Below, piece by piece: positions 42,501 through 54,500 of a stretch of 64,000 nt of DNA. The stretch is from an uncultured delta proteobacterium. GTDB lineage: Bacteria > Desulfobacterota > Zymogenia > Zymogenales > Zymogenaceae. The stretch is from assembly GCA_963735595.1 (NCBI GenBank), contig CAVTLK010000001.1:928001-992000 (forward strand), in the 5' to 3' direction. The position numbers were made by a program. How positions within the stretch are numbered: position 1 is the first letter of the stretch; each line of letters begins with the position of its first letter.

Positions 42501-45500
42501 CTGCGGCGGCAAAGGCAACCAGCGGCTCCCTGAAGATCGGGAGGCCCGGGCTCTCAGGAATGGCATTGCCGTGATCGCCGGCCACGAACGCCCTGATAAG
42601 GTCAACAATCCGATCGCGTGTAATCATCTCGCTTCCGGCCGTCGGCTGTTCTTACTTGGTCTCCTTGGTGACGATCAGGTTTTCCAATCCAAGCTCCTTG
42701 AGGATAACCGGGAACATCCCGAACGCGGGGCGCACCACGGGCAGCAGCTTCATCATGGCCGTTATCTTGCCGCCCTGCTTGACCTTACCGCGCGTGACGG
42801 CGGCCACCGGGTTTTCGAGGCCGTGCCAGAAGCTGTGCGAGAAATCGGCGGCCTGCTTGGACCAGACGTCTTCCTTCAGCTCGCAGGGGCCCAGGTAGTA
42901 GTTGCCGTGCATGCCTTCTTTTTTCGGCGGGTTCTTCAGGTCGATGGTGATCTCGGAATCGGGGTCGGTGTATATGAACCTGATGATGATGCCGGCCTTG
43001 CTCATCTTCGGCCCGATCTTGGGGTCGGTGAGGATTCGATTCATAAAGTAGCCGTAGATCTTGTAGAGGTCGTCGGCGTCTTTATAGTACTTTCCCATGG
43101 GAGGCCTCCTTGATATTACGTTGTATCATAGTGGCCGGTATGCACCGGCGACCCAGCAAGCGGGCGGCATGAATTCCGCCCGTACGGGCCCTCATATAGC
43201 TATGCTTGAACCACCATACTGCCGGCGAACACGCTCTACTTGCCCTTCCGCTGGTCGAATCTCCTGCCGAACAGCAGGCTTGCCATCGTGATCCTGAGCA
43301 TCTGCACGGTGCCGCCTGCCACCCGCCAGGCCATTGCGTCACGCGCCATTCGCTCCACGGGGAATTCCGTCGAATAGCCGTACCCGCCGAATATCTGCAT
43401 CGCGGAGACCGCCACCTCAACGGCCATCTCGTTGGCGAAGCACTTGCCCATCGCCGCCTCATAGACCGAGGGAAAGCCCCTGCCCGCCCCGCACGCCGCG
43501 CGGTAAACCAACAGCCGCGCCGCGTCCAGCTTCATTGCCATATCGACGATTTTGAACTGGACGTCCTGGAACTCGCAGATAGGCCGCCCGAAGGCGCTGC
43601 GCTCCTGGGCGTATGCCTTGGCCGCCTCCAGCGCACCCCCCGCGGTGCCCAGGCACATGGCGGCGTTTCCGCACCGCTCCACGTCAAACGTCGACATGAG
43701 GTTGACGAACTCCCCCTCTTTGACGACGAGGTTCTCCTTGGGGACCTTGACGTCCTCGAAGATCAGGTCGCAGGACGGCATGGCCCGTAGCCCCATGAAG
43801 ACCTCCTGCTTCCCGAAGGAAAACCCGGGCATCCCGTTTTCCACCAGCAGCCCGCCGATCCCCTTATAGCCCGGGGTATCGCCGAGCCGGCAGTAGACCA
43901 TGTAGTGGCTGGCGTGCCCGCCGCCGGTGATAAACGTCTTCGTGCCGTTGAGCAGGTAGTGGTCGCCCTTGTCCACGGCCTTGGTGGTCAGCGCCGTCAG
44001 GTCGGAGCCGGCCTCCGGCTCCGTCATGCAGACGGAGACCGAACGCTCTCCCTTGCAGACTTTGGGGATGATCTCCTTTTTCTGCTTTTCCGACCCGTAC
44101 CGGTCGATGACCCGGACGGGGCCGACATTCGATTCAAAGACCGGCGCGGCGATCATCGGCGAGAACTTGGCCAGCTCCTCGACGGCCAGCACCGCGTTGA
44201 GGACGGGCTGCCCCCCGCCGCCGTTCTCCTCCGAAAGCGTCATGCCCAATAAACCCAGCTCGGCGTACTTGGCCATGAGGTGGTAGGGAAACTCCCCGGT
44301 AGCATCGATTTTTTTCGCCAGTTCCTTGAAGTTCTCCCGCTCCCCCATCGTCCTGAGCGTCTCGACGAGCATCTTTTGTTCGTCGGTAAGATTGAAATCC
44401 ATGTTCCGTCCTTTCTCAAATATTTTTGGTGATCTGTGTGATATCCGTGACCGTTTCGAGCTTGAGTATTCCGTCGATAAGGGCGTTGAGCTTTTTCACG
44501 TCCCGCTTTCCGGCAAACAGGCGCACCTTTTTTGCCACGGCATCGCTTGTCATGGGGTCGCGCGGGTCGCCCGCGGGCATATCGACCTGCCTGGTGATCT
44601 TTTCGCCGGTCTTCAGGGTAATCTCGACGCGGCTGGCGGTCTTGCCGGGATAGAGCTTATTGAGCTCATCGTCGTAGTTGACCGTGACTTTTTTCGTAAA
44701 CTCGATCAGCGCCGGGTCCGAGAGCCGCTTTTCGGTAAGCTGGACCGGGCCGACCATGCCGTCGGCGATCGCGACCGACACGACGTACGGGATGGAGAAC
44801 TGGGCGTTGACGAAACTATCGTTGAGGACCACCGGTTTCCCGACAGCCAGTACCGCGATCCCGTAGGTGAAGACGTCGACCTTCTCCACGTCCTTCGGGC
44901 CGATTTTCTTTTCGGCCACGAGTTCGATCGTCGCCTGGGCCGACCCGTGCGTGTGCCGGCAGGCGGTATAGGGCTTGAAGTAGATATCGAGGATCGTGAG
45001 GCGTTCTCCCAGTTTGTCGGTGATCCGCTCGAACGCCGGGGGTTGGTCGGTGGTGATCTTGCAGAAACCGCCGTTAAGCTTGGAGCCCTCAAAGACGTTG
45101 GGCATCCCCGTGACGCCGGCGGCGGCCAATTCGGCCGCCAGGAGCCCGCTCTGCGCGGCCTTGCCACCCTGCACGACCTTGACCGTAAAGCCTCCCATGA
45201 GCTGCTCGGCCATGGACAGCGGAACCAGGTAGCCGGCGCAGCCCAGCGCCGAAAGCGTCGTCGCCTTATCCAGCCCCATGAGCTTTGCGGCCGCTATCGC
45301 CGCGCCGAAGGTGCCGGTAGTGCCGGTTGGCAGGAATCCCGAGAGTGTGTGCCGGGGATGGACGGATGCCGCCGCCCGGTCGGCCGCTTCGTAACCCGCG
45401 ACGACGGCAGCGATAACGTCCTTGCCGCCTTTTCCGTTTCTCTCGGCCAGCGCCAGGGCCGTCGGGATCACCGCGGTGCCGGGGTGGTTTCCGCCGAAGC

Positions 45501-51500: not shown

Positions 51501-54500
51501 AGCCACAACGGCAGGTGAAGCGTGGGCGGCTTTTTCCCGAAGGCCAGGGCCGCCAGGCGTCAGGGCCCGCTCGATGGTCGGTTTGGAATCGTCGACGATG
51601 TTGTAGATCTTGCCGGTGTTGCCCGAAAGCTCCGACAGGTGCACCACCGCCCGCGCCACGTCCTCCGCACGGACGTTGGCGAGAAGCTGCTTGCCGCTGC
51701 CGGGGATCGCCGTGATCGAGGTGGGCCGGGAAAAGGCCTTGCCCGCCCCGTCCGTACAGCGGGGGCCGTAGACGGTGCAGGGGCGGCAGAGGATCGGCGT
51801 CAAGCCCCTTTTCGAGCGCCGCAAACAGCATATTCTCGCCGTCCCTCTTGCTCCTGCCGTAGTCGTCCTGCGGGTTGCGCGGAGAGTCTTCCCGGAAGGG
51901 GGAGCCGGTATACGGCCCGTAGACGCTGGTGGAGGTCACGTGGACGAACCGCTTGACCCCCGCCTTGATGGCCGCCTCCGTGATCAGGGCAACCCCCGCC
52001 ACGTTGGTGGGATAGAGGCGCTCATAGGGCGTGGAGAAATTGCAGATCGCCCCCATGTGGATGACCCGATCGACCTCTCCCTCAAACAGCGGCGGCACCG
52101 TCTCGGGCTTCGTCAGGTCGGCGGCCACGTACTGGACCCCCAGCCGGTCGAAAAACGACGTGTCTTTTCTGGGCCGGGCGGTGGCCCTGACCTTGACGCC
52201 CGATTTGGCCAGGTGTTCGACCAGGTGGCTCCCCATGAAAGCCGGCGGCCCCGGTAACCAACGTGATCCCGGTAGAATTTCACGTCGTTCCTCCTGTGGT
52301 TGCGACCGCTTTAACGTTCTCCCGGTCTATCGTATCCCCGCTGCTGCGGGATTTCCGGGAGGATATCTCGGCCTGAATCTCGACCTTGACGCGCTCAAGC
52401 CAGGCCAGCATCATCTCGTTGAGCGAAATACCCAGTTCTCTCATAAGACGGACGTTGGTGTTCTCGTTCTGTTTATGGTCGTATCGGTGGCGCCGTGAGG
52501 AGAGATCCGCGTGATAGATCCGTATCTGCTCCTCGATGATTTCGAGGGACCGTTCTTTATCCCCGAAGGAGAAAGAAGACGAACTTGAGCAGAAAAGGAT
52601 CGCGGATGAGCATTCCCCGCTCGGGCGCCGTATTGAGCCACTCCGCAAAGGCCTCTTCACCCTTCTCGGTGATGGAATAGAGCTTCTTGTCGGGGACGTT
52701 TTTCTGGGCCACGTCGACCTTCGTCACCAGCCCCTCCTGCTCGAGCTGCTTGAGGTTCGGGTAGATCTGACCGTAGTTGATGGACCACATGAAGCCGAAT
52801 TCATTCTCGATGACTTCCTTGATACGGTAGCCGTGCATATCTTTGTAATGAAGCAGTCCCAGGATGGCGTATTTCACGGACATGGTGTTTCCTCGCGGGT
52901 AGTGGGAAAAGGACTCGATCGGTCGGCGGGAAAAGGGAGCATCGGATCGCCGGAGGACCGATACGACGTTACGGGGAAGGCCGATGAATTTATGTCGAAA
53001 GTATATATATCCATAGTATATATGTCAAGGCTTTTTTTCGTTCTCGAAAAGGCGTTAACGCTGTATGGGATGACCTCGGCCGTATGTCTAATCCGTCATC
53101 GGGAGGAGGAATCAATCCGGTTTGGTGTAGTACGGGCCGGCCCCGATATGATAATATGGCCCGGTCGTTCTGGCGCCCATGATGACACAGGAACACGATG
53201 AATTTGGCCCTTCTACCTCGCGTGGGACACTCCCGGCCCGACCTGCCGAAGACGGCGGCCCGGATTTCGATCGTTTTGGGTATCGCCGCCCTGCTTGCCG
53301 TCCCGGCCTGGGCGGGACCCGTGCTGTCAGCGGACATCGTCGCCGATATCTTCTCTTCCCGGACCAACGAGGCCGGCCGGGACTTTTCGCCGGCCGCCGT
53401 GGCCGTCGTCGAGGGCGCTTTTACCGCCCCCGGGATGACCGAGGCCGTGGTCTCTTTTTCCGACGCTAACCAATCACACGCCCTGGGTACCGCCGAGATA
53501 TGGCTGCTTCGGCTCGTCGGTGAACGATGGGAGCCGGTCGCGAAGATCGCCGAGTCCGATACCGCCGAATTCGTCACCACCGACCTCAACGGCGACGGCG
53601 CCCTCGAGCTGCTCACTCACACGGCCGCCGGAAACCAGGGCTACTTGGTCATCTGCCGTCGCCTCGTCTACTTCGCGGACGGAAACCCGACCGACCTCCT
53701 GACCTTCGAGGGTTTCGATAATACCGGCTGGCCCGACAAGGGGATCTGCGCCTTCGACGCGCGCTTTGCGTTCAAGGACGTCAACCGGGACGGTGTCATC
53801 GAGGTCGAGCTGACTGAATATTACGATTACTGCCAAAAAGAAGGAGACGCGTCGGTCTTCCTGCGCCGGTCGGAGCGGTCAACCGTCTTTTGTCCCGTAA
53901 TCTCGGCCTCCGGCTCGATCATCGGAATCCAGCGGCTCCATTAGCCCTGCGTCGCATCGCACCCCCCCTCATCACGGACGAATCGATTTATTCGCCGCCC
54001 TATTGAAAAGCGGGTCGTCGCAAACTAAATTATTACTATATTAGTAGTATTTTATCGCCCGCGACGAAGGAAAGGCTCTGCTATGCTGTTTATAGTAGTA
54101 AGAGAACGCGATAACGACAAAACGCAAAAGGAGAGACTGATGGGAGCAATAGTATTGGTGCTTCTGGCGATAGCGGCGGGCTTGCTGATATACCGTTACC
54201 GGTCCCAGGGCACGCTTGATATACTGCAATCGGATCGGAACCGGTCGAATCAGACACCTGAGGATATCCTGAAGCGTCGGCTGGCCGAAGGGAAGATCGA
54301 TGAGAAAGAATATACCCGGATCAGACGGACGCTTAGCTCCTGAAATTAGGGGTTAGGGTCGGTCCGGCCTGACAGAAAGGAGTCTGCTATGTTTGAGACA
54401 CTTATTTCGAGCGCGTATGGAACAATCGGCACGCTCTTGGGTGGATGGTGCGGCGGATGGGGCGGCGGCCTTTACGGCGGCCGCGGATTCGGTATGATGG

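Follow-up and report, generated by a model that had tools for sequence, protein, structure and literature searches.

A June 2026 review of glycyl radical enzymes (GREs) describes eliminases of C-O (six), C-N (one) and C-S (three) bonds as well as three isomerases, with small polar substrates and iron-containing small subunits only (PMC13450708). In that review, a GCxE-type motif defines the GRE 1,2-eliminases and the CxE motif is also common to the isomerases, so that CxE is not sufficient for an eliminase assignment. In glycerol dehydratase (GD) the Glu of this motif is the base, while His164, part of the substrate-site set, is the acid (PMC13450708, section 5.6), and Phe333 forms a wall of the pocket (PMC7077986). 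Dehydration by HpfG is followed by the action of HpfX and then HpfYZ (PMC11489063), with HpsOP providing a racemase precedent (PMC13335735). The route described for cleaving alkylglycerol ethers is monooxygenation and depends on tetrahydrobiopterin (PMC3520006), and no enzyme for oxygen-free cleavage of these ethers was found in the literature searched.

The window analysed, a 64,000-nucleotide stretch from an uncultured member of the Zymogenaceae, encodes a GRE (GRE-A) within a complete eight-gene operon on the minus strand (42652-52883), in the order given by the initial annotation. A candidate sigma-70-like promoter (TTGACA-17-TATACT; 53000..53028, minus strand), identified by an 11/12 consensus match only, lies such that the PadR gene starts 117 bp on; the consensus search found 4 promoter-type sites in the region, with 3.3 expected. 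The first genes code for a PadR-family regulator (Pfam PadR; 52327..52883, end approximate, ~184 aa), an epimerase/3beta-HSD-like extended SDR with the YxxxK motif retained (51282..52283) and a classical SDR closest to the 17beta-HSD type (50346..51176), in which Ser138, Tyr151 and Lys155 are invariant in 45/45 rows. Three genes are frameshifted in the assembly, namely PadR (extra base near 52571, both frames matching L003), the extended SDR (four extra bases, at 51796, 51558, ~51441 and 51421) and MmgE (near 45605). Each forms a single ORF in both L001 and L003, and the extra bases of the first two are absent from the Illumina contigs of relatives, the MmgE break falling outside the rows listed. 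The extra bases are probably assembly errors. That the source copy is a decaying operon, as the three broken genes, the missing local activase and the frameshift in the genome's lone activase gene might imply, is extremely improbable given that single-base breaks occur all through the source assembly, that the three genes are unbroken in relatives with a GRE at 88-89% identity, and that a GRE-A match is present in 9/9 other genomes of the family, fragmented in two.

A locus search returned 61 loci, of which 57 family members (55-98% identity) were kept and 4 distant ones (27-29%) dropped. Neighbouring genes among the 57 comprise the SDR (45), CoA-transferase A (44), the extended SDR (43), PadR (39), the SCP2-like protein (38), CoA-transferase B (37), MmgE (35), ACAD (34) and a tungsten aldehyde oxidoreductase (AOR; 20), within 0-3 of the figures first reported, and the operon is conserved as then proposed. 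The module is two-tiered: to a core of extended SDR, SDR, GRE and SCP2 is added a CoA-transferase/MmgE pair which is always lost together (L023, L027, L028, L034, L037, L156, L163 and L164). Of the genomes sampled, 21/201 Syntrophales and 16/301 Desulfobacterales carry GRE-A, and loci also occur in Spirochaetota, Syntrophomonadaceae, Binatota and Actinomycetota. Anaerobes of sediment, soil and digesters commonly have a member of the clade. Lipase, sulfatase and amidase genes are single occurrences at these loci, where no sulfonate-pathway genes recur.

GRE-A itself (47870..50251, minus strand) measures 793 aa if read from its ATG (50251); the residue numbering used here runs from the TTG at 50290 (806 aa). 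It matches the PFL-like barrel (PF02901, 661 bits) and the C-terminal Gly-radical domain (PF01228, 83 bits) in Pfam, and in the PDB it is closest to the glycerol and diol dehydratases (585, 521 and 517 bits), compared with 279 bits for benzylsuccinate synthase (BSS), 257 for MASS and 119 for PFL. It falls below all NCBIfam equivalog cut-offs (HpfG 567/1000, PflD 517/1109, HypD 511/1100, HpsG 485/1000, CutC 464/1050, indoleacetate decarboxylase 385/1100, HPAD 294/1150, PFL 153/994) and passes only the broad PFL2-3 subfamily model (678.6/678.2). On these comparisons GRE-A is a discrete, uncharacterised GRE clade, in agreement with the new subfamily claimed initially. Its branching outside a 44-row group of GD-like and CutC-like rows, together with the occurrence of CxE in GRE isomerases, would also accommodate other chemistry, be it a decarboxylation, an isomerisation or an addition across a double bond, with the aldehyde enzymes acting ahead of GRE-A. 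We consider this distinctly improbable, as the decarboxylase and succinate-synthase models score far lower than HpfG and no Fe-S small-subunit gene recurs beside GRE-A among ORFs of at least 90 aa in the collected loci.

The active-site signature was derived from 120 rows (GRE-A of the window and 119 homologues), with GD sites mapped via the 1r8w alignment. H181 (GD His164), N297 (His281), C453/E455, F467 (Asp447), F663 (Tyr640) and G782, the radical-site Gly on a C-terminal Gly loop with RxxG, are invariant in 120/120 rows; further listed site residues are S298, T360, T466, Q470 and V665. GRE-A thus retains the catalytic Cys and Glu (GCLEP motif) and, from the GD set His164/His281/Asp447/Tyr640, His164 alone, the other three being presumably substrate-binding residues. 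The initial annotation was correct as to the retained His164, the Asn for His281 and the Phe at the Asp447 site; the Phe-His pair it placed at Tyr640 is F667-H668, which aligns with GD I644-N645, four residues past that site. Of the aromatic walls of GD, Phe333 is replaced by Gly and Tyr339 by T360, and Ser642 gives way to V665, three changes that the initial annotation overlooked; the stretch P350-T360 is without an aromatic residue where GD has Phe333 and Tyr339. The HypD set Asp278, Asp339, Phe340 and Tyr450 is absent, GRE-A having Asn297, Thr359, Thr360 and Gln470 at these sites as mapped by eye via GD and motif anchors. The pocket appears opened and partly polar, not merely more hydrophobic, and the invariant Glu174, Glu345, Glu346, Glu353 and Lys358 suggest a polar or charged substrate group that would be needless for an alkyl ether. 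The hydrophobic substrate proposed earlier is retained with this qualification.

The same residues bear on two other substrate classes. Thr466 lies at the position of CutC Thr502, in what we take to be the CutC numbering, and the invariant Glu353, Asn297 and Gln470 could bind ammonium, as would befit a C-N eliminase converting a hydrophobic 2-amino-1,3-diol (a sphingoid base or some other acyl amino alcohol) to ammonia and a 3-hydroxy fatty aldehyde. Amide hydrolase genes adjoin or lie near the three lone GRE-A genes (L021, L022 and L054) and follow the AOR gene in L046 and L055, and the classical SDR scores 158/400 on the ketosphinganine reductase HMM. This reaction is nevertheless improbable: His164 is retained as in C-O eliminases, neutral ceramidase shows no link to GRE-A (1/21 positive and 1/42 negative Syntrophales), and a small-acid Gct-type transferase would be ill-suited to a C18 acid. 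A glycerol-type side chain bearing an aryl or polycyclic substituent (as in an arylglycerol or lignin beta-aryl ether, a steroid 20,21-diol or a hopanoid polyol) could instead be accommodated by the aromatic lining of F467, F663 and F667 and the opened loop, and the SDRs are similar to steroid dehydrogenases and to HpnA, while the best HMM of an MFS transporter is that of a bile-salt transporter (166/400). None of these HMM scores comes near its cut-off, however, and no aromatic-ring or steroid-ring genes recur at the GRE-A loci examined, making such substrates rather remote candidates.

The last gene of the operon codes for a protein of 148 aa (42652..43098, minus strand) with 68-91% identity among 33 orthologues. 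None matches PF02036 directly above the gathering score, with one of 34 members at E 0.22. A paralogue (L072:6483-6914) passes this model (44.1/21.3) and aligns with the family (98% probability, E 4e-14), the ESM Atlas feature search returned SCP2-like (0.94), and the top PDB matches are two SCP2-type chains (E 0.36-0.39). By these profile and feature comparisons the small protein has the SCP2 fold, an assignment which initially depended on a single search. SCP2 domains above the Pfam cut-off are also fused to other GRE clades (P0008, P0009, L177, L210 and L247). Counting against the lipid-eliminase reading set out below, no SCP2 orthologue was found in 6/10 GRE-A genomes chosen for the lack of SCP2 at the locus (five without a match, one with distant paralogues only), all of them incomplete MAGs.

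Between GRE-A and the SCP2 gene, on the same strand, lie genes for the GctA-like (46692..47627) and GctB-like (45834..46634) CoA-transferase subunits, an MmgE/PrpD-family protein (44416..45784) and an acyl-CoA dehydrogenase (ACAD; 43236..44402). The transferase subunits best match glutaconate CoA-transferase (1poi_A 184 bits, next 79; 1poi_B 201 bits, next 48), sharing its two-subunit layout and the Glu of the xESG motif in the beta subunit, which we take to be the catalytic Glu. This closeness to a dicarboxylate enzyme speaks against a lipid-derived substrate, as does the fact that all characterised MmgE/PrpD enzymes have 1,4-dicarboxylate substrates (PMC12290011). Compared with the IDS epimerase, whose residue roles are described in the same work, the MmgE protein retains H99, K198 and K266 and has H85->E (31/32), D88->E, Y145->T (31/32) and H150->L/M (32/32); loss of the two carboxylate-binding His residues and the second-base Tyr145 fits a one-base lyase acting on a non-succinate acid. 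The ACAD has Gly363 where the C-terminal catalytic Glu is usual and an invariant Glu242 on the middle helix, and its best HMMs, both below cut-off, are 3-sulfinopropanoyl-CoA desulfinase (355/600) and acryloyl-CoA reductase (342/640). Both of these enzymes act on C3 acyl-CoAs. The GctAB likeness, the occurrence of the same MmgE, CoA-transferase and ACAD trio in the methylsuccinate cluster (PMC12290011), the joint loss of MmgE and transferase, the invariant Lys358 and a paraoxonase-like (PON) lactonase or esterase at 9/57 loci would fit a polar carboxylated terminal diol derived from a lactone (3,4- or 4,5-dihydroxy acid), converted by the GRE to a succinate- or glutarate-type semialdehyde, with MmgE epimerising the diacid for a stereoselective CoA-transferase. 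This is fairly improbable in view of the lost H85, H150 and second base Y145, the N-terminal membrane anchor of PON in 8/8 full-length copies, and the SCP2 partner, which a polar substrate leaves unaccounted for.

An aldehyde product is consistent with AOR or aldehyde dehydrogenase (ALDH) genes in 19/30 first-set loci extending at least 2.5 kb past SCP2, and is opposed by the 11/30 with neither nearby. In a second set of 26 loci, ALDH occurs in 8 and AOR in 3; AOR is interchangeable with NAD-ALDH. Fe-ADH and ALDH genes often adjoin GRE-A, L031 encodes an SCP2-ALDH fusion, and the source genome has a 56% identical AOR in an Fe-ADH/SCP2/AOR trio. YhhN, of the lysoplasmalogenase family, is present in 15/21 GRE-A-positive and 6/42 negative Syntrophales, with weak replication in Desulfobacterales (8/16 and 15/60, p 0.07) among related genomes that are not independent; its gene neighbourhoods are unconnected with the GRE-A operon.

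Most operons are without an activase gene, as noted before, while eight genomes carry one within the operon. Most of the remaining genomes have the activase belonging to another orphan GRE cassette (cassette B), which occurs in 13/21 GRE-A-positive and 17/180 negative Syntrophales, and in 12/16 positive and 9/60 negative Desulfobacterales; the source genome has a single, frameshifted activase gene. The GRE-A activase is thus probably often encoded elsewhere in the genome, with the second cassette a plausible source. A GRE activase is as a rule specific to its own GRE, and the Gly loops of GRE-A and the cassette-B GRE differ (RISGYS and RVTGYN), both of which argue against sharing. These candidate activases lift the main practical obstacle to an assay of GRE-A.

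The chances are about even that GRE-A acts as a 1,2-eliminase, with a lipid-derived terminal diol as substrate and an aldehyde as product. Observed are the genes present, their conservation, the catalytic Gly/Cys/Glu/His set, the SCP2 fold and the co-occurrence with an aldehyde oxidiser and an activase, and the reaction steps given below are inferred. The dehydratase matches and the retained CxE and His164 favour elimination, and the SCP2 fold, the SCP2-GRE fusions and the likeness of the SDR to 17beta-HSD point to lipids, with the weakly replicated YhhN co-occurrence as a further point in favour. A monoalkyl glyceryl ether (alkylglycerol) is the lead candidate substrate, tentatively so and unlikely when taken specifically. 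Accessory hydrolases (PON-like esterase, lipase, sulfatase, amidase) would release the diol, whose C2 enantiomers would be interconverted via the ketone by the two SDRs, in the way that HpsO/HpsP act on DHPS. Cys453 would take a hydrogen from the CH2OH group, Glu455 deprotonate and His181 protonate the departing C2-OH, yielding R-O-CH2-CH2-CHO, the loss of Phe333 and Tyr339 making room for the C3 substituent. The SCP2 protein may bring the substrate or hand the aldehyde to AOR or ALDH, and the 3-substituted propionate would pass to the Gct-like transferase, MmgE and ACAD for processing, either by beta-elimination to acrylate and ROH on MmgE or by ACAD action on the CoA ester. The freed alcohol would enter Fe-ADH/ALDH and then beta-oxidation, and the in-operon activase or, failing that, the one from the second cassette would generate the glycyl radical. 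The complete scheme, in which GRE-A is the entry enzyme of oxygen-free alkyl glyceryl ether breakdown by dehydration to 3-alkoxypropanal, oxidation and beta-elimination, with SCP2 as a new GRE accessory subunit and an activase shared with an unrelated GRE, is quite unlikely to hold in full. If true, an eliminase that is directed at lipids and partnered by SCP2 would constitute a new GRE class, and because the clade is so common in its habitats it could point to a step of anoxic lipid recycling that has so far been missed.

The proposed logic, from a 3-substituted propanediol via 3-X-propanal to an acid or CoA ester, is that of the HpfG pathway (DHPS dehydratase HpfG, aldehyde dehydrogenase HpfX, reductase HpfD and ligase HpfYZ), whose dehydratase gives the best equivalog match, far under its cut-off, and which has no counterpart of the SCP2, GctAB, MmgE and ACAD proteins. 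GRE-A shares the Gly loop, GCxE, His164 and Ser282 with Clostridium butyricum GD (1r8w/1r9d, 585 bits) and the 1,2-propanediol dehydratase 5i2a (517 bits), and differs from GD in H281->N, F333->G, Y339->T, H446->T, D447->F, F450->Q, Y640->F and S642->V, in a two-residue insertion in the cap loop and in its operon, where an adjacent activase is absent from most loci. In the methylsuccinate/itaconate cluster, a CoA-transferase, an MmgE/PrpD isomerase and an ACAD of the same families act in turn on the free acid and CoA ester (PMC12290011), whereas the transferase here is of the two-subunit Gct type and MmgE is without the catalytic Tyr and two His residues. As with BSS, MASS and HPAD, a small gene under strong conservation accompanies GRE-A, for which a hydrophobic substrate is proposed. 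Iron proteins of the HiPIP or rubredoxin type make up the known GRE small subunits (PMC13450708, section 4.2), whereas the partner of GRE-A, paired with it at the gene level, is a predicted SCP2-fold protein.

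The initial annotation had described a conserved eight-gene operon at 42652-52883, and its genes were all located on the minus strand in the claimed order: PadR, extended SDR, SDR, glycyl radical enzyme (GRE-A, 47870-50251), CoA-transferase subunits A and B, MmgE/PrpD, acyl-CoA dehydrogenase (ACAD) and a 148-aa protein. The PadR, extended SDR and MmgE genes are frameshifted in the window. As they are single open reading frames in relatives whose GREs are 88-89% identical, and as the extra bases of the PadR and extended SDR genes are absent from short-read contigs of related organisms, these frameshifts are read as assembly errors. 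The locus search returned 61 loci, of which 57 within the family were kept and four distant ones dropped. Among the 57, many of them on short contigs, the neighbour counts agree with those reported initially (SDR 45, CoA-transferase A 44, extended SDR 43, PadR 39, SCP2-like 38, CoA-transferase B 37, MmgE 35, ACAD 34 and tungsten aldehyde oxidoreductase (AOR) 20), and the gene order was found again in 26 additional loci. In two wetland RNA libraries, contigs match 30/30 and 27/30 operon bins at ≥85% likeness, which, as no silent stretch was compared, does not equate to transcription; sequencing runs with small shares were left out as habitat evidence. HGD/BadF genes near some loci (five loci) and a QueG-like pair after the operon (five loci, close relatives) recur too rarely to be counted as operon parts. 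The latter, a tandem pair of Fe-S proteins (40977-42627, minus strand), are 67% identical to each other and the first is frameshifted. A DUF362 protein (~473 aa) is encoded directly 3' of CoA-transferase A in loci L010, L015, L016, L040 and L047, between A and B where the contig holds both. A short intergenic element common to many unrelated contigs, where depth is very high and either side has loose ends, lies past the GRE stop (47800-47835), adjoined by a predicted hairpin (47846-47863).

GRE-A belongs to the GRE superfamily, is putatively 1,2-eliminase-like and lies outside every named class tested. In a search of 1.84 billion 50%-cluster representatives it forms one cluster (64%), with the next matches at 45% and then at most 43%. 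None of the best 120 90%-clusters drops below 66% identity, and none has more than a generic name; GRE-A falls wide of every NCBIfam equivalog cut-off. Its closest solved relative is glycerol dehydratase (GD). In a FastTree phylogeny of 70 rows (seven family members from the loci, the top 60 representatives, two fusions and one CutC-like protein) family members form a clade with full support, separate from the group that holds the GD-like and CutC-like rows; as most characterised GREs are absent from it, the tree shows a discrete, unnamed clade but not its sister function. In a single-sequence relative nested in this clade (P0002, 45%) the catalytic Cys is missing (AGGVE) and the Gly loop is altered (RFGGYP); this sequence is possibly inactive or an error. 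GRE-A was found in 21/201 Syntrophales and 16/301 Desulfobacterales sampled, and matches occur in all nine other genomes of the window's family. It stands without the operon in L021, L022 and L054, and in each case an amide hydrolase of the penicillin amidase or amidase family is encoded next to it or no more than 8 kb away. The operon was not found in the open-access literature, nor in sections 2.3-3, 4.1-4.3, 5.6, 5.7 and 7 of PMC13450708. No open-access paper joining a GRE, MmgE and a CoA transferase was found; among the matches listed for GRE, SCP2 and sterol carrier, one unrelated fungal paper holds all three terms, and PMC12814064 has no bearing on the operon.

The active site was mapped entirely from sequence, by alignment to GD (1r8w), and the signature of its own initially ascribed to GRE-A proved invariant at all mapped sites in 120/120 rows. 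With residues numbered from the TTG at 50290 and GD residues in brackets, the sites kept are G782, C453, E455, H181 (His164) and S298 (Ser282), while those changed are N297 (His281), T360 (Tyr339), T466 (His446), F467 (Asp447), Q470 (Phe450), F663 (Tyr640) and V665 (Ser642). Glu435 of GD is the base and His164 the acid for loss of the C2-hydroxyl (PMC13450708, section 5.6); as both are kept, this chemistry would be intact in GRE-A. Some other chemistry is judged improbable. According to the part of the HypD paper used here (PMC7077986), Phe333 of GD sits on a short helix walling the pocket. The GRE-A stretch P350-T360, where GD has this wall residue, holds no aromatic residues, and its Glu353 and Lys358 are invariant, so that the pocket looks opened, with one side hydrophobic and the other polar.

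Direct Pfam matching gave no match for the 148-aa protein and no significant one for its family, and PDB profile matches of the family are not significant taken alone. The ESM Atlas score of 0.94 for SCP2 was obtained again. The earlier caveat that this call rests on one feature search is superseded: the family profile found two paralogues in the window's genome (E ≤1e-15), one of which scores 44 bits on Pfam SCP2, above cut-off, and can be aligned to the family with 98% probability, and the SCP2 identity of the protein is secure as homology. This protein varies less than the GRE (median 72% vs 66% in 18 complete loci), and its gene stays with GRE-A in the minimal loci L023, L027, L037 and L156. 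No SCP2 orthologue was found in six of ten genomes tested, chosen because their loci lacked one, which counts against an obligate role. GRE small subunits known so far are all iron proteins in the sections of PMC13450708 used here. SCP2 domains above the Pfam cut-off occur at the N-terminus of other GREs, namely P0008 and P0009, which rank 8 and 9 in the representative search and have relatives labelled Asgard archaea, and those of L177, L210 and L247. Such fusions were also seen in P0271-P0273 and, more weakly, L226 and L228, at least three lineages overall including Asgard archaea. A locus search with P0009 returned a single irrelevant locus. A broad SCP2 profile matched in 8/79 loci of other GREs, one of which (L202) is itself a GRE-A operon, as is L200. 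In the window's genome, one SCP2 paralogue (C5:479860-480378, in L071) lies directly 5' of a 2-oxoacid/acetoin dehydrogenase E1-like gene, its family assigned by eye from the translation, or the two are fused with a frameshift between them.

The SCP2 protein, the steroid-dehydrogenase-like operon SDRs and the varied unmasking hydrolases near the loci (PON-like esterase in 9/57; single lipase, sulfatase and amidase cases) together point to a lipid-derived alcohol as substrate. That GRE-A is an eliminase acting on a lipid-derived terminal diol is given an even chance. YhhN, of the lysoplasmalogenase family, is encoded in 15/21 GRE-A-positive vs 6/42 negative Syntrophales, 8/16 vs 15/60 Desulfobacterales (p 0.07), and 28/40 other operon genomes vs 3/14 controls. 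YhhN neighbourhoods show no recurring link with the operon. The window's own YhhN-family gene (58626-59315, plus strand) lies 6 kb from the operon, a position seen only in its genus. A sphingoid base would be another lipid-derived source, and is doubtful as neutral ceramidase showed no co-occurrence with GRE-A. This null result and the YhhN co-occurrence tilt the balance modestly towards ether glycerolipids, with a monoalkyl glyceryl ether the tentative lead substrate, itself rather unlikely. A lactone-derived dihydroxy acid, alongside the PON-like esterases of a minority of loci, ranks a little below this lead and slightly above the sphingoid base, while an aryl or polycyclic glycerol, alongside the steroid-dehydrogenase-like SDRs, is the least probable of these substrates.

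Four GREs are encoded in the window's genome, with a single GRE activase located after a GRE other than GRE-A. Most loci indeed lack an in-operon activase; it occurs in eight genomes (L031, L107, L110-L113, L118 and L160), from at least two lineages in a tree of seven that excludes L160. Orthologues of the L031 activase (≥300 bits) are present in 36/44 operon-bearing genomes, and 28/30 fetched loci place them after GRE-B, a second orphan GRE, usually with a PNPOx-like gene. The GRE-B clade (Gly loop RV[AT]GYNAY; C2:564227-567518 in the window's genome, L068:9116-11518 and the genes after, and L076-L104) has its own activase and usually a PNPOx-like protein, and it shows strong co-occurrence with GRE-A. 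The L031-type activase was found with GRE-A in 13/21 vs 17/180 Syntrophales without it (odds ratio 15.6; 8/16 and 9.6 without the five seed genomes) and in 12/16 vs 9/60 Desulfobacterales (odds ratio 17; 7/11 and 9.9 without seeds), kin not being independent; 11 and 29 candidates per genome were scored, respectively, at a cut-off of E 1e-85 (~300 bits) that overlooks the frameshifted activase of the window's genome and those of two of three genus relatives. Of the eight GRE-A Syntrophales without an L031-type activase, all five tested have their own in-operon activase, and this complementarity suggests activation of GRE-A in trans by the GRE-B cassette activase. A shared lifestyle would yield the same co-occurrence signal. 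Cross-activation is rare and mostly confined to near-identical Gly loops (PMC13450708, section 2.5), and the loops of GRE-A and GRE-B differ, which speaks against a shared activase. An activase is fused to the N-terminus of a GRE in P0044 (1095 aa), and in L141:978-5596 an activase gene and then YhhN come directly after a third GRE type.

Downstream, Acidaminococcus GctAB is far nearer to the CoA-transferase than other solved relatives. In the ACAD, Gly replaces the usual C-terminal Glu, and Glu242 on the middle helix, the site of the isovaleryl-CoA-type role, is invariant; its best HMMs are C3 acyl-CoA enzymes, scoring under cut-off. In the operon MmgE the catalytic His and the two Lys residues are retained, and it has lost His85, His150 and Tyr145, which serve dicarboxylate binding and as second base in the part of PMC12290011 used here. 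With these missing, a standard epimerase is an improbable role for it, and it may act as a one-base lyase. The transferase and MmgE are absent together while the ACAD can persist in L028 (with a ligase), L163 and L164.

The GRE-A product is probably an aldehyde. An AOR or NAD-ALDH is encoded in 19/30 loci reaching 2.5 kb beyond the SCP2 gene, many Syntrophales carry an ALDH directly 5' of GRE-A, often with an Fe-ADH, and L031 encodes a fusion of the SCP2 protein with an ALDH. The window's operon has no AOR; an Fe-ADH/SCP2/AOR trio elsewhere in its genome (C5:327247-330975; L072:5215-8979), with an AOR 56% identical to those of the operons, may supply this step in trans. The main text of the WOR classification paper mentions none of glycyl, SCP, sterol or lipid. 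The gene layout of HpfG/HpfD/HpfX/HpfYZ, in the part of PMC11489063 used here, parallels that of the operon, and HpsOP (PMC13335735, likewise in part) provides a precedent for an oxidoreductase pair serving as a C2 racemase.
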